Below, piece after piece: positions 23,251 to 38,936 of a stretch of DNA of 64,000 bases. The stretch spans positions 322,948 through 386,947 of IMG/VR virus record IMGVR_UViG_3300021979_000001; one strand, 5' to 3'. This DNA comes from a virus. Taxonomy: Duplodnaviria > Heunggongvirae > Uroviricota > Caudoviricetes. How positions within the stretch are numbered: the first letter of the stretch is position 1; the number at the start of each line of letters is the position of its first letter. The translations under genes were made by a program, and so were the position numbers. The notes below the pieces were generated by a model. That model was not told the DNA's origin. It worked only from the letters and a program-made list of their open reading frames with translations, and did not search any database.

Positions 23251-23326
23251 TGGTGGCCCCAACAGGACTCGAACCTGTAACCAGACCGTTATGAGCGGTC
23301 GGCTCTACCAATTGAGCTATAAGGCC
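23251..23326 (-). tRNA. tRNA-Ile2(CAU) (lysidine type) or Met
   Basis: GGCCTTA acceptor and GACCG-CTCATAA-CGGTC anticodon arm typical of Ile2. Confidence 0.9.
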
Positions 23327-29663: not shown

Positions 29664-29738
29664 TGGCTCCGGCAGTAGGATTCGAACCTACGGCCCCCTG
29701 ATTAACAGTCAGGTGTTCTACCGCTGAACTATACCGGA
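29664..29738 (-). tRNA. tRNA-Asn(GUU)
   Basis: Loop CT-GTT-AA, cloverleaf, CCA. Confidence 0.95.
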
Positions 29739-29831: not shown

Positions 29832-30705
29832 ACCCGTGAGATTACCGGGGTTTATAATGGGCCTTTCCGAACATTACCGATAACTTGCGATTATCGTTCT
29901 TTCGTTATCCATGCCACGTGATTGCAGCATATCCCATTAGTGTCGCCTTTTTTAGTGAGTGGCAGTTCTCACATCATTGAATTGTCCTCGACCGATTATC
30001 CCATACCGACACTTATAAATGCCGTTCGCGTTGCTACACGCTATACCAGATTACTGATCAATAGTCCTTAGATTTGCGATCTTTAGACTACCCATTTTCT
30101 CATAGAGAATGGGATTAGACACCTTTCCAATTCAACTGGGACAGTCTTTTGCGTTTTTTGCGGAATCGAACCGCCGAAGCAGATTAGAAGTCTGTTGCCA
30201 ACCATTGGCTATTGAAAAAATCACTGTCATGCGCTGTCCCAAGTTGCTTCATCACCGCTTTACAGTGACAAAATACAACGCATCACGTTCCGTTCGTCTT
30301 GCTAGACTACTAAGACTATATTTTGGATATTGTCAGTTCCCCACCAAAATCCTCATATATGCAAACCGCTCTTAGGTGCAACCCTTCGAACTTATTTTGC
30401 TATCCATTATGTTTCATGATGAACGATTTAGCGTTGTATAGATGATCTGCTACAATCATTTAGCAATCAGCATACGCCATCTTGCCTATCTTTTCAGCCA
30501 TACATTCGTTTTCTCACTAGACACCACGTTAATGATGTCACCTTGTGGGCAACACTGGACCTGCATAGATGTGCCAAAATAAATTGGTGAAAGTGCGTGA
30601 CTACTCTCTTTCAGTCTATTACTAGACTATATACTAATGACGCTATGCCGCCATAGAGAACCACACACAAGGAATGTCATAGACAAACCATACATGGTGG
30701 CTCAA
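29832..30705 (-). ncRNA. Giant structured RNA, GOLLD-like
   Basis: ~870 nt with no credible ORF, many hairpins with GNRA-type loops on the minus strand, internal tRNA-like domain, directly upstream of tRNAs; 3' part resembles GOLLD from memory. Confidence 0.7.
30152..30222 (-). ncRNA. tRNA-Arg(UCU)-like domain embedded in the giant RNA
   Basis: GCCA-ATGGT-TGGC D-like arm, CAGA-CTTCTAA-TCTG anticodon arm, GCGG-TTCGATT-CCGC T-arm, weak A/T acceptor, no CCA. Confidence 0.6.
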
Positions 30706-35113: not shown

Positions 35114-35189
35114 ATGGTTCTTAAACACAAAAAAACAAGGCTGGTGAAAATTACCAGCCTTGTTTTTGTTTCATCATTTGATGAATGAT

Positions 35190-35266
<77 letters not shown>

Positions 35267-35309
35267 TTTGTTGCTCTCTTATATCGAATGGTGAAACTAT
35301 TGTCAACAT

Positions 35310-35690
35310 TTAGTTTTCGTGAATCGAAAAATATTCTGGTCCCAATGCTGAAATCAACACTACTTTTCCAGGTAACCCATGTGGATTGTTAAGTTCATCG
35401 ATAACCGAACTCCCTATTCCATCTTCTGGATCAACTCGTAGAAGATCAGTTGGGACATTTTTAACCTGGACTACGGTATTACATCCTTTTTCTTCGGCGA
35501 ACCATAATGCGTCGTCGCTGTCAGATGACAAATACAGATACCTGCTTTGGCCCATATTTGCCCCTTGCGCCCATGAACGCGGAGTCCACCCATTTTTAAT
35601 TAAATTTTCTGCACTATGAGAACATGTTCCATGATATAACACCGGGATAATCATGGTATTTTCTGATACTATATTGATAAAATCTCGCAT
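35310..35690 (-). CDS. Small ART-fold protein
   Basis: VLYHGT..NLIKNG..YLYLSS..A.WFA; MRDFINIVSE start; TAAATA upstream. Confidence 0.65.
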   Translation of the reverse strand: MRDFINIVSENTMIIPVLYHGTCSHSAENLIKNGWTPRSWAQGANMGQSRYLYLSSDSDDALWFAEEKGCNTVVQVKNVPTDLLRVDPEDGIGSSVIDELNNPHGLPGKVVLISALGPEYFSIHEN

Positions 35691-35754
35691 TATTATCCTA
35701 CGTTAACATGATGCGATTATTTATCTAATATTTCAGGTCAAAACAAAAAACGAA

Positions 35755-35830
35755 TGGTGCCGGGGAACGGATTTGAACCGCTGACACCCGCCGCTTCAAG
35801 ACGGTGTTCTACCAACTGAACTACCCCGGC
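35755..35830 (-). tRNA. tRNA-Phe(GAA)
   Basis: CCGTC-TTGAAGC-GGCGG anticodon arm. Confidence 0.9.
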
Positions 35831-35841
35831 ACAAAAAAAGA

Positions 35842-35916
35842 TGGTGTCCCCAACGGGATTTGAACCCGTGCTTTCACCTTGAAAGGGTGATGGCCTAACC
35901 ACTAGCCGATGGGGAC
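35842..35916 (-). tRNA. tRNA-Glu(UUC)
   Basis: Loop CT-TTC-AA, GTCCCC acceptor. Confidence 0.95.
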
Positions 35917-36242
35917 TATTCTGTTTTGATATATTTACGAATCTTTTTCCGCAAATCAAAAGTAAATGGTCGCTCGTTTTTCTCCAACAAATCTGTTACC
36001 AACGTAGAACATGTAATTCCGCATGAACGCAATGAAACGTCTTCACTTTTTGGTTTCCCAGTAGTAAAAACTCCGGTAATTTCTTCATTGTCAATATCAA
36101 CCACAAAAAAATCGCGATTTTTTACATCGTTGATGTTACGGCAAACAGAAGCGAACCCATGATTTCCAAATTTTTTCGGATTAAATTCAATAACAACATA
36201 TTCAGTCATACACACATTCCTTTGATTTGTTAATTTATACAT
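35916..36242 (-). CDS. Hypothetical protein
   Basis: ORF; AAGGA before MTEYVV. Confidence 0.6.
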   Translation of the reverse strand: MYKLTNQRNVCMTEYVVIEFNPKKFGNHGFASVCRNINDVKNRDFFVVDIDNEEITGVFTTGKPKSEDVSLRSCGITCSTLVTDLLEKNERPFTFDLRKKIRKYIKTE

Positions 36243-36273
36243 TATATATATAGTTAAACTGAATATATGTCAA

Positions 36274-37019: not shown

Positions 37020-37095
37020 TGGAGAACCATGTCGGACTCGAACCGACGACACACAGATTAAGAGCCTGTTGTTCTAGCCGCTGAACTAATGGTTC
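37020..37095 (-). tRNA. tRNA-Lys(CUU)
   Basis: Loop CT-CTT-AA. Confidence 0.92.
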
Positions 37096-37109
37096 AATAT
37101 CAAAAAAGA

Positions 37110-37183
37110 TGGTAGCGGGTCCGGGCGACGACCCCGGCTAATCAACGTTATGAGCATTGATCCTTTCCCAGCGAAGCCCCGCC
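37110..37183 (-). tRNA. Atypical tRNA-Met(CAU)
   Basis: TCAATG-CTCATAA-CGTTGA arm, T-loop GTCGTCG, irregular D-arm, CCA. Confidence 0.65.
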
Positions 37184-37204
37184 AAAAACACACTCGTTGG
37201 TAAA

Positions 37205-37281
37205 TGGTGATCCTGGAAGGATTCAAACCTACAACCTTCGGTTTCGTAGACCGACGTTCTATTCAGTTGAACTACAGGATC
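37205..37281 (-). tRNA. tRNA-Arg(ACG)
   Basis: Loop CT-ACG-AA. Confidence 0.92.
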
Positions 37282-37288
37282 ATAAAGA

Positions 37289-37373
37289 TGGTAGTCGTAG
37301 GGAGACTCGAACTCCCATGGGAAACCCCACCGGAACCTAAATCCGGCGCGTATACCAATTCCGCCATACGACC
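37289..37373 (-). tRNA. tRNA-Leu(UAG)
   Basis: Loop TT-TAG-GT, long variable arm. Confidence 0.93.
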
Positions 37374-37384
37374 ATTACTTAATA

Positions 37385-37632
37385 GTCGATCTATACAGAT
37401 CGAAAAGGGGGTTGCGGACGCGTTGTATCGGGGACTTGCACCCAAGACTCCAATCAATTCATAAGACCGACTTAACTTATGAATAACGTGGATTCGAACC
37501 ACATTCTCTCTACCGGCATGCCATAAATGGTGGTAGGCAACTTACATACAACACTTACCCTCACGTTATATCAATTCTTGATTATGACTTAAACGTTATC
37601 ATCATAATCCATCCTATCAACTTCGATCAGGT
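37385..37632 (-). ncRNA. Putative multibranch RNA with two T-loop hairpins inside the tRNA array
   Basis: GTGTTGTAT/ATACAACGC closing stem; TGTGG-TTCGAAT-CCACG and GGG-TGCAAGT-CCC; ATTCATAAG/CTTATGAAT hairpin. Confidence 0.55.
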
Positions 37633-37653
37633 CAACTTATATTCTAATTTTAT

Positions 37654-37728
37654 TGGTGGAGCCAGTCGGATTTGAACCGACGACCCTTTGCTTGCAAAGC
37701 AAATGTTCTCCCGCTGAACTATGGCCCC
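37654..37728 (-). tRNA. tRNA-Ala(UGC)
   Basis: Loop TT-TGC-AA, G3:U70. Confidence 0.95.
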
Positions 37729-37754
37729 TATTTTCGTGTTTATTTAATCAAAAG

Positions 37755-37828
37755 TGGATGCCCCTGCTGGATTCGAACCCGCGCTAATGACGCCAAAAGC
37801 CATTGTTCTACCACTAAACTAAGGGGCA
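37755..37828 (-). tRNA. tRNA-Gln(UUG)
   Basis: ATGGC-TTTTGGC-GTCAT arm. Confidence 0.88.
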
Positions 37829-37880
37829 TTAATAATTACGTTATACTACATGATGTTAATTATTGTCAACATCTTTTTTA

Positions 37881-37954
37881 TGGCACGGGTGGAAGGATTC
37901 AAACCCTCACTAACAGTTTTGGAGACCGTTGTGCTATCATTACACCACACCCAT
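37881..37954 (-). tRNA. tRNA-Trp(CCA)
   Basis: Loop CT-CCA-AA, G73. Confidence 0.92.
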
Positions 37955-37968
37955 ATATCCATAATGAA

Positions 37969-38055
37969 TGGAGATAGTGACAGGATTCGAACCTGTGCGC
38001 GATAAAATCGTCCGGGGTTGCAATCCGGTGCAATCGACCACTCTGCCACACTATC
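37969..38055 (-). tRNA. tRNA-Cys(GCA) with long variable arm
   Basis: Loop TT-GCA-AC, U73, variable arm CGAT-TTT-ATCG, 87 nt. Confidence 0.85.
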
Positions 38056-38068
38056 ACCAGTAAAAAAT

Positions 38069-38155
38069 TGGAGGACCGGGTGAGATTCGAACTCACGCTG
38101 CGCTTTCGCGAACGGATTAAAAGCCCGCTGCCATCGACCGCTCGGCCACCGGTCC
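38069..38155 (-). tRNA. tRNA with Lys(UUU) anticodon and long variable arm
   Basis: GCGGG-CTTTTAA-TCCGT arm, variable arm CGC-GAAA-GCG, 87 nt. Confidence 0.85.
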
Positions 38156-38165
38156 TCAATAAAAA

Positions 38166-38250
38166 TGGTGGGAAGCCGTAGAATCGAACTACTCCCCTTT
38201 CGGGAACGGATTTACAGTCCGCGTGCTAAAACCATTAACTTTGACTTCCC
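38166..38250 (-). tRNA. tRNA-Tyr(GUA)
   Basis: Loop CT-GTA-AA, variable arm CCC-GAAA-GGG, irregular D-arm. Confidence 0.85.
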
Positions 38251-38488
38251 ATATAAAACAGAATTGGTTCCTTCAATTCATCAACAAAATTTATTTCAAG
38301 ATTAGTAACTTGGTTACAAATACCATATATGTAACTATAGCGGCATTTATGTTGGAACATGCCACTACCAGGCTTCACAACCCAGTTGCACCTTTTTTCC
38401 GCAATCATTGCATCCATCCAGTAACCCGCCCGTTCGAGAATGTTTTAGGTGTTTTCTCGCGACCTCGTTTCGCATACCACCAAGACAT

Positions 38489-38520
38489 AAAAAAACCCGG
38501 CGAAGTTTCCTTCTACCGGG
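38489..38520 (-). terminator. Intrinsic terminator/attenuator upstream of tRNA array
   Basis: CCCGGTAGAAG-GAAA-CTTCGCCGGG-TTTTTTT. Confidence 0.85.
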
Positions 38521-38554
38521 GAGTAAGATTATCAATTATGTGAAATTAGTCACA

Positions 38555-38704
38555 TCATTTGACAATAATCTCCCCATGGGCCAGATATTGCTCTTTCCAA
38601 TTGCGAGGCATAAAATACGCGCAAAGGTTTGCAGCAATACGCTGATTGCGTTTTGCTTCAAATTTTGCGTTATGTTTTATGCAATTCGACATTTGAAAGT
38701 TCAT
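38555..38704 (-). CDS. Putative leader peptide (45-49 aa)
   Basis: Short ORF after AAGGA whose last codons (GGGGAGATTAT) are complementary to the terminator 5' flank. Confidence 0.55.
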   Translation of the reverse strand: MNFQMSNCIKHNAKFEAKRNQRIAANLCAYFMPRNWKEQYLAHGEIIVK

Positions 38705-38936
38705 TCCTTGTTCAGATTTGTCTATGTAAGACACGTCATTGCGTCTCACACAAATATATTTATCAAAGTAATTTCTAAAATTCAACATATTTTTTCAATT
38801 TTATGCAAAAAAATTCAAAACCCTATGATTTCTGCGGGTTATAGAACGAAAAAAATGTCAACGACCGTTATTTTATAAACATTGTGCCCCACTGAAGAAC
38901 CTGGTGGAAATACCATCACTTGTTTTTATCATCATA

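Follow-up and report, generated by a model that had tools for sequence, protein, structure and literature searches.

A putative codon-matched leader-peptide attenuator ahead of a tRNA array in a T4-like jumbo phage

Introduction

Why phages carry tRNA genes is a long-standing question, in which codon bias, depletion of host tRNAs and anticodon nucleases all figure. The locus described here raises a narrower one: what is a short ORF, closed by an intrinsic terminator, doing directly ahead of a phage tRNA array? An original prediction, made from the DNA letters alone, took it for a ribosome-sensing attenuator that switches on the array whenever almost any tRNA fails. We consider it highly probable that the element is a ribosome-mediated transcription attenuator with a codon-matched leader peptide, whose regulated genes are tRNAs. 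This judgement rests on sequence and on folding models, with no RNA, Term-seq or ribosome data behind it.

Results

Source genome and relatives

The window, by which we mean the whole 64,000-nt stretch that was analysed, spans C1:322948-386947 of a 457,165-bp single virus record (IMGVR_UViG_3300021979_000001). The source genome is a T4-like jumbo phage of ~457 kb, with a T4 gp23-like major capsid protein that is 74% identical to that of Sinorhizobium phage Phosso and 64.5% identical to that of Agrobacterium phage Atu_ph07. It encodes a permuted two-piece tmRNA of alphaproteobacterial type with a 13-residue tag (G000 C1:160209-160554), from which we infer an alphaproteobacterial host. The whole genome holds ~23 credible tRNA genes, and none was found in it for Asp, Val or Ile(GAU). 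Searching at the DNA level for close relatives returned only tRNA matches. Because no close relative was found, a base-level covariation test was impossible, and relatives were chosen instead by capsid identity (65-81%); they have no leader sequence in common. Two candidate relatives, L001 and L002, were rejected as the same genome (100% identical), and L003 as unrelated. A CCA-adding tRNA nucleotidyltransferase (45490-44348, plus strand) and an AAA_33 kinase-like gene (43298-42777, minus strand) lie 4-6 kb upstream of the tRNA array, a neighbourhood consistent with tRNA maturation or repair.

A short ORF between a promoter motif and a terminator

On the minus strand, a promoter motif (38764), a 45-49-codon ORF, an antiterminator, a terminator and the tRNA array follow one another in that order (Table 1). 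When checked against the sequence, the predicted ORF, the 34-nt gap from its stop codon to the terminator stem, the terminator with its T7 tract and the helix strands all proved correctly placed; the promoter motif had been overlooked. Its octamer, GATAAATA, is the top enriched octamer upstream of the phage's genes (30 seen versus 1.5 expected), and most related leaders are headed by TTGAC + ATAAATA hybrid promoter words. We infer that the motif acts as a promoter and that transcription starts near 38750. The leaders of G007, G013 and G001a have 5' hairpins of a similar kind to the one found here.

Table 1. Features of the putative attenuator locus and of the tRNA array downstream, in window coordinates
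Feature	Coordinates	Strand	Details
Promoter motif (function inferred)	38757..38785	-	degenerate -35 TTGAAT (38785-38780), 15 nt, late-type octamer GATAAATA (38764-38757)
5' hairpin	38723..38752	-	-16.2 kcal/mol; just past predicted transcription start
Shine-Dalgarno-like AAGGA	38705..38709	-	12 nt 5' of ATG 38692; 0 nt 5' of ATG 38704
Leader ORF, orphan peptide	38555..38704	-	49 aa from 38704 or 45 aa from 38692
Sensor roster, codons 27-39	38588..38626	-	LCAYFMPRNWKEQ; all 12 array amino acids plus one Asn
Antiterminator hairpin	38518..38575	-	5' strand in codons 43-47; -22.6 kcal/mol
Intrinsic terminator	38489..38520	-	stem 38520-38496, GAAA loop, -15 kcal/mol, T7 at 38495-38489
Spacer	38251..38488	-	238 nt; no promoter consensus, two one-mismatch late-like words only
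tRNA-Tyr(GUA), Lys(UUU), Cys(GCA), Trp(CCA)	37881..38250	-	no promoter motif of their own
tRNA-Gln, Ala, Leu(UAG), Arg(ACG), degenerate Met(CAU), Lys(CUU)	37020..37869	-	internal TTGACA motif 37869
Distal array	35131..36273	-	motif 36273, 108-aa ORF, tRNA-Glu, Phe, 126-aa ORF, motif 35306, tRNA-Pro
First strong terminator after the attenuator	35167-35131	-	past tRNA-Pro

Translation of the ORF is likewise inferred. It begins 53-65 nt past the promoter octamer, a short ORF in a promoter-proximal leader. The position of AAGGA makes the 45-codon start (38692) the likelier one, although its 12-nt spacing is at the long end. Gene calls vary, one assembly giving the 45-aa form and others a 77-aa form from 38788. 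The coding sequence itself (38688-38600, minus strand) folds as a long hairpin of -29 kcal/mol, possibly a pause or initiation-tuning element; similar hairpins occur in the G007 and G013 leaders.

The peptide matched only itself among 5.8 billion proteins and 1.84 billion representatives, and it has no Pfam match; two apparent peptide hits (P0010 and P0011) were repeat-derived and spurious. A conserved small protein gene was rejected for want of any protein-level homologue or known domain. A check for arrest peptides of the ermCL, msrDL and tnaC type found an orphan peptide and no visible motif common to the related leaders; ligand-dependent arrest lay outside its scope. At the RNA level, 38250-38800 matched no Rfam family, T-box or riboswitch, even at an E value of 5.

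The last codons are predicted to compete for the base of the terminator

The terminator, which was assigned by sequence only, lies 246 nt 5' of tRNA-Tyr. Within the last codons, GGGGAG (38575-38570) and ATTAT (38569-38565) can pair with CTCCCC (38523-38518) and ATAAT (38532-38528), respectively, and the 121-nt region folds better than 200 of 200 shuffles (z -3.84). The two helices had been called mutually exclusive. They do compete, on narrow ground: the antiterminator 3' strand and the terminator 5' arm share 3 nt (three C, 38520-38518), so that only three basal G-C pairs are at stake. On folding, an upstream GGCCC (~38582-38578) is able to pair with the freed terminator 3' arm and tips the balance to read-through.

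We masked a ribosome footprint codon by codon and calculated how probable the four basal pairs of the terminator were, using equilibrium folding that is neither kinetic nor co-transcriptional. In this model, a ribosome on any of codons 10-40 leaves the terminator probability at 0-0.37 (mostly <0.1), and one anywhere from codon 41 to the stop raises it to 0.97-0.99. Varying the temperature (20-37 C) and the footprint (+9 or +15 nt) left the switch point at codons 40-42; at codons 28-30, the probability reached 0.3-0.5, and up to 0.52, under some of these settings. None of 45 terminators of ordinary genes fell below 0.5 under the same masking, and the modelled switch was lost when the last 12 codons were recoded synonymously (median 0.96; 7 of 300 recodings as low as wild type). 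With these controls, the equilibrium model yields an antiterminator that a ribosome masks, as in an attenuator. The prediction that a ribosome at the ORF end frees the terminator while a stalled one allows read-through thus found support in the folding models and in the layout of nine related genomes.

Counting the window's own, 15 of the 17 leaders have their stop codon 26-34 nt ahead of the terminator. This spacing is consistent with an attenuator but was discarded as discriminating evidence, since ordinary genes also fall at 15-40 nt. The window's copy has no 1:2 helix, the device of super-attenuation by which an untranslated leader terminates, so blocked initiation should also open the switch.

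The putative sensor codons list the tRNAs of the array

Taken as starting with tRNA-Tyr (38250) and closing at the first strong terminator past tRNA-Pro (35167), the array serves 12 amino acids (Tyr, Lys, Cys, Trp, Gln, Ala, Leu, Arg, Met, Glu, Phe and Pro). Every one of them is present in the sensor roster, and the end of the roster coincides with the modelled switch point. An equally compact roster occurs in 0 of 32,040 48-residue windows of the phage's proteins and in 18 of 100,000 leader shuffles. Among the 12, Glu, Phe and Pro have promoters closer to them, and Met rests on a degenerate tRNA; when only the nine proximal amino acids are counted, the match is weaker (5 of 32,040 windows; 1.4% of shuffles). 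Across codons 2-40, array amino acids fill 29 of 39 positions (p=0.002), and 16 amino acids are represented, with Asp, Gly, Thr and Val absent (p ~1e-5). Codons cognate to the downstream genes thus stand ahead of the antiterminator strand, where control codons of an attenuator belong. The Arg codons (CGC and CGT) and Leu codons (CTT and CTG) fall in the boxes of the in-array Arg(ACG) and Leu(UAG) rather than those of Arg(UCU) and Leu(UAA), which are encoded elsewhere in the genome; on five codons, this lends the match only weak support. The leader also has six Asn codons (38704-38588, minus strand); the array has no tRNA-Asn, which lies at 29738, outside it and beyond a terminator.

Two points of the original prediction need revision here. 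The leader does use 18 of 20 amino acids, a count that carries no signal, being reached by 31% of 45-aa and 40% of 49-aa windows of phage proteins. Nor would it simply be a sensor of almost any tRNA: given the four absent amino acids and the enrichment for the array's own, we infer that the sensor reads mainly its own tRNA set. Sensing of general translation failure holds as a side property, through blocked initiation.

What read-through would reach

Isolated tRNA genes elsewhere in the genome have a promoter motif just upstream, unlike Tyr-Lys-Cys-Trp. From the placement of motifs, we predict that these four depend on read-through, with the attenuator as their only visible entry. Internal sigma70-like TTGACA motifs at 37869, 36273 and 35306 stand ahead of Gln-Ala onward, Glu-Phe and Pro. 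A promoter downstream of the terminator had been named as a refutation; none is seen in the spacer for the first four genes, and only the later ones have such motifs. The claim that the element switches on the array accordingly fits Tyr-Lys-Cys-Trp; for the rest, "boosts" is probably the better word. As the simplest reading, we infer that internal promoters give a basal level of expression, to which inducible read-through adds over the whole block. The phage genome yielded no second leader attenuator. As a conserved RNA, the spacer was rejected, being no more structured than chance (z -0.55) and not conserved; a 60-aa ORF within it is not called as a gene in the collection.

Several tRNA genes are unusual in their own right. 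tRNA-Tyr (38250-38166) was missed by default ARAGORN and found at a relaxed threshold. tRNA-Lys(UUU) (38155-38069) and tRNA-Cys(GCA) (38055-37969), both on the minus strand, are 87 nt long, carry U73 and have a long variable arm. Lys, Cys, Trp, Asn, Gln and Gly tRNAs with such arms are also present among G001, G005, G006, G007, G013, Phosso and BF. tRNA-Met(CAU) (37183-37110, minus strand), detected at the relaxed threshold only, has a poor D arm, a non-standard T loop and a mismatched acceptor stem, and is possibly a pseudo-tRNA though Met is in the roster. tRNA-Phe(GAA) (35830-35755, minus strand) has G37-C38 in its anticodon loop in place of the usual A37-A38, which may alter modification or nuclease recognition. 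tRNA-His (23245-23170, minus strand), missed at the default threshold, directly follows tRNA-Met(CAU) at 23326. A 76% identical duplication (35234-35083 and 34772-34626) of the tRNA-Pro 3' half and trailer flanks an oppositely oriented ORF. ORF-free stretches lie inside or before tRNA blocks at 37632-37385, which has no Rfam match, and at 30705-29832 (minus strand), which contains a tRNA-Arg-like piece at 30222.

Related phages carry the layout with different codons

Counting the window's own, we identified 17 leaders, spread over 10 of 13 related genomes, cultured Phosso and Atu_ph07 among them. G001 has seven, G005 two, and G002, G004, G006, G007, G013, Phosso and Atu_ph07 one each, so the layout, whose conservation had been named as a check on the original prediction, recurs in nine related genomes. 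Promoter, short ORF, terminator and tRNA block recur, hairpins like the window's terminator stand at the head of related arrays, and the sequences differ between relatives. The detector picked up no leader in PA5oct, in Vibrio phage 2.275.O or in Serratia phage BF; absence is not proven, because it at first missed G002 and G005 (weak U tract, inserted ORF). The cultured copies are annotated as hypothetical proteins (AUZ95228.1 in Atu_ph07 and XYS97753.1 in Phosso).

Each of 12 leaders tested for it can form a duplex between its last codons and 4-8 nt of the terminator 5' arm. The sequence is different each time, and the duplex is worth -10.6 to -22.8 kcal/mol versus a control median of -6.5. 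In the comparison of codons with arrays, 8 of 12 leaders ranked their own array first. When arrays were swapped among those leaders, the observed match of 34.1 was never attained in 200,000 permutations (3.1 +/- 5.1); 5 of the 12 leaders come from one genome. Where tRNA blocks are small, the leaders are specific: Thr/Val/Ile runs precede an Ile-Thr-Thr-Thr-Val block, Leu/Gln runs precede Gln/Leu tRNAs, Asn runs precede two Asn tRNAs, and a Ser/Tyr/Trp/Arg leader heads a Trp-Ser4-Tyr-Arg block. The Atu_ph07 leader holds the nine amino acids of its proximal block within eleven codons. Three leaders, two from G005 and one from G001, were found after the codon-match rule was fixed. The first G005 leader has 40 of 40 sensor codons within its own array's 12 amino acids (p 1e-9), the second favours the complementary amino acids (Leu, His, Ser, Gln, Pro and Tyr), and the G001 leader has a Ser run ahead of four tRNA-Ser genes. 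The folding model gave little or no switch for G005a, G001e and G001d.

Some relatives depart in detail. In G005 (L113/L112, ~C1:105500-106500), an ORF that looks endonuclease-like, by eye only, sits between the attenuator terminator and the first tRNA, with its own late-promoter-like word upstream. Three G001 leaders (L122, L123 and L115) start ~1 nt past the assumed transcription start, as leaderless mRNAs would; two G001 blocks have tandem duplicate terminators; and in the G001 Asp/Glu leader (L124) the stop lies ~67 nt ahead of the terminator.

Other readings of the same parts

Could the same switch chiefly gauge translation in general, responding to a block of initiation, to antibiotics or to host shut-off, with less weight on which codons are read, as the original prediction emphasized? 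With no ribosome, the model gives a terminator probability of 0.01, so an untranslated leader is predicted to read through; the permissive zone is ~30 codons long and, as noted above, broad in content; and the leaders of G002, G006, G007, G013 and Phosso use 19-20 amino acids. These broad leaders head near-complete tRNA sets, however, in relatives where a single array serves nearly every amino acid, and the four that failed to rank their own array first (G006, G007, G013 and Phosso) precede long arrays in genomes with such sets. Elsewhere, composition tracks the array, as in the Ser-rich and Thr/Ile/Val leaders and the complementary G005 pair. Moreover, several relatives' leaders terminate when untranslated (modelled probability 0.98-1.0), the feature of super-attenuation being present in G001a/b/d/e, G004 and Phosso. 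We give a mainly general gauge little credence.

An ordinary small late gene, or a structured small RNA, with its own terminator would leave the tRNAs to leak or to an unseen promoter. Gene callers do list the ORF, 38800-38250 folds well (z -4.5), the stop-to-terminator distance is that of ordinary genes, and in Phosso promoter-like words follow the terminator in an alignment. This account is very unlikely: it leaves the codon-array match across 10 genomes unexplained, the antiterminator pairing is absent from the 45 control terminators, and neither the peptide nor the RNA has a counterpart in the databases searched. Scarcely tenable is an antitermination leader or timing device controlled by protein or RNA (a phage late factor, T-box-style tRNA binding) with an incidental ORF, for which competing helices would serve as in any termination switch and the promoter looks hybrid early/late, but which meets no T-box or riboswitch match and no common sequence for a factor, in leaders that do have frame, stop position and codon content in common.

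Discussion

What we report for the codon-matched attenuator is a set of parts and their geometry, a match between leader codons and array, a layout conserved in relatives and a switch in an equilibrium model. In the mechanism that we propose, RNA polymerase would start near 38750 and a ribosome would translate the leader. When decoding is fast, the ribosome would pass codon 40-41 and cover the GGGGAG strand, the full terminator would fold, and the transcript would end at 38489. Were a roster tRNA missing, uncharged or cut, the ribosome would linger on codons 10-40, the antiterminator would hold the terminator base, and polymerase would enter Tyr-Lys-Cys-Trp. Read-through would probably extend to the terminator past tRNA-Pro, adding to basal expression from internal promoters and closing a negative-feedback loop, since the phage would then provide the very tRNAs that are short in decoding. 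Coupling of transcription to translation, the size of the effect, the natural trigger and stall-driven read-through in vivo all remain inferences.

What would such a loop be for? The tRNA-Lys of T5 rescues the phage from PARIS, a tRNA-cutting defence (PMC11464382), and phage tRNA-Tyr and tRNA-Lys rescue against retron-Eco7 and PrrC, respectively (PMC11555353); how well they rescue varies with their expression level, and the strength of the promoter counts (PMC11555353, PMC11464382). In the array described here, Tyr and Lys(UUU), species cut by retron-Eco7, PrrC and PARIS, likewise come first after the terminator, which makes counter-defence attractive; for those rescue tRNAs, a strong promoter is described and no sensor. 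Anti-defence as the main purpose is plausible and without a supporting test, and we hold it only tentatively. Amino-acid starvation or a late-infection shortage of tRNAs would trip the same switch and is not separable from defence here. A broader idea, equally speculative, is that jumbo phages keep a programmable surveillance of the host tRNA pool, in which each block's leader is written in the block's own codons and re-spelled as blocks change, so that tRNA-cutting defences are detected and nuclease-resistant tRNAs released. This surveillance reading points to the genes that lead the array, among them Tyr, which is unusual, and Lys and Cys with their long arms.

A sensor wired to tRNA genes would mean on-demand tRNA supply, with codons that list which tRNAs the phage monitors, and it would extend attenuation to non-coding RNA genes as direct product feedback. 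Because two cultured phages (Atu_ph07 and Phosso) carry the element, it is testable now, and such leaders could serve as compact reporters of tRNA shortage.

Leader-peptide attenuators are familiar from amino-acid operons, as in trpL, hisL and leuL and the multivalent thrL and ilvGMEDA leaders. The phage element is like them in its short ORF with control codons, its antiterminator overlapping an intrinsic terminator, and its predicted read-through on stalling. It is unlike them in being viral, in regulating tRNAs rather than biosynthesis or synthetase proteins, in having one codon for each of 12 amino acids instead of tandem runs and, in the window's copy, in lacking the 1:2 helix, with the read-through that this predicts for an untranslated leader. 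With tRNA genes downstream instead of enzymes, we class it as a variant, not a member, of the attenuator class. The pheST (pheM) attenuator, which controls phenylalanyl-tRNA synthetase, is likewise a sensor of charged tRNA that governs a component of the translation machinery; there, a single amino acid is read and the product is the synthetase, whereas here the products are the tRNAs themselves. The trpL of S. meliloti is a leader-peptide transcription attenuator (PMC6614838). T-box riboswitches bind uncharged tRNA directly and need no ribosome (PMC4052509); there, too, tRNA status sets the choice between terminator and antiterminator, but the phage element has no Rfam T-box match, that is, none to stem I, specifier loop or T-box bulge. 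We found no published account of attenuation of phage tRNA genes in a search mostly outside subscription journals, and the word "attenuation" appears in neither the Atu_ph07 and AP-J-162 papers nor the jumbo-phage overview. It is absent, too, from a paper (PMC8421152) on the trn operon of Anabaena PCC 7120, a tRNA array induced under translational stress as this one may be, there through the repressor TrcR (PMC8421152, PMC10272220). Leader-peptide attenuation is thus known for amino-acid genes, with no publication found for tRNA genes, which are the genes that this leader appears to govern.
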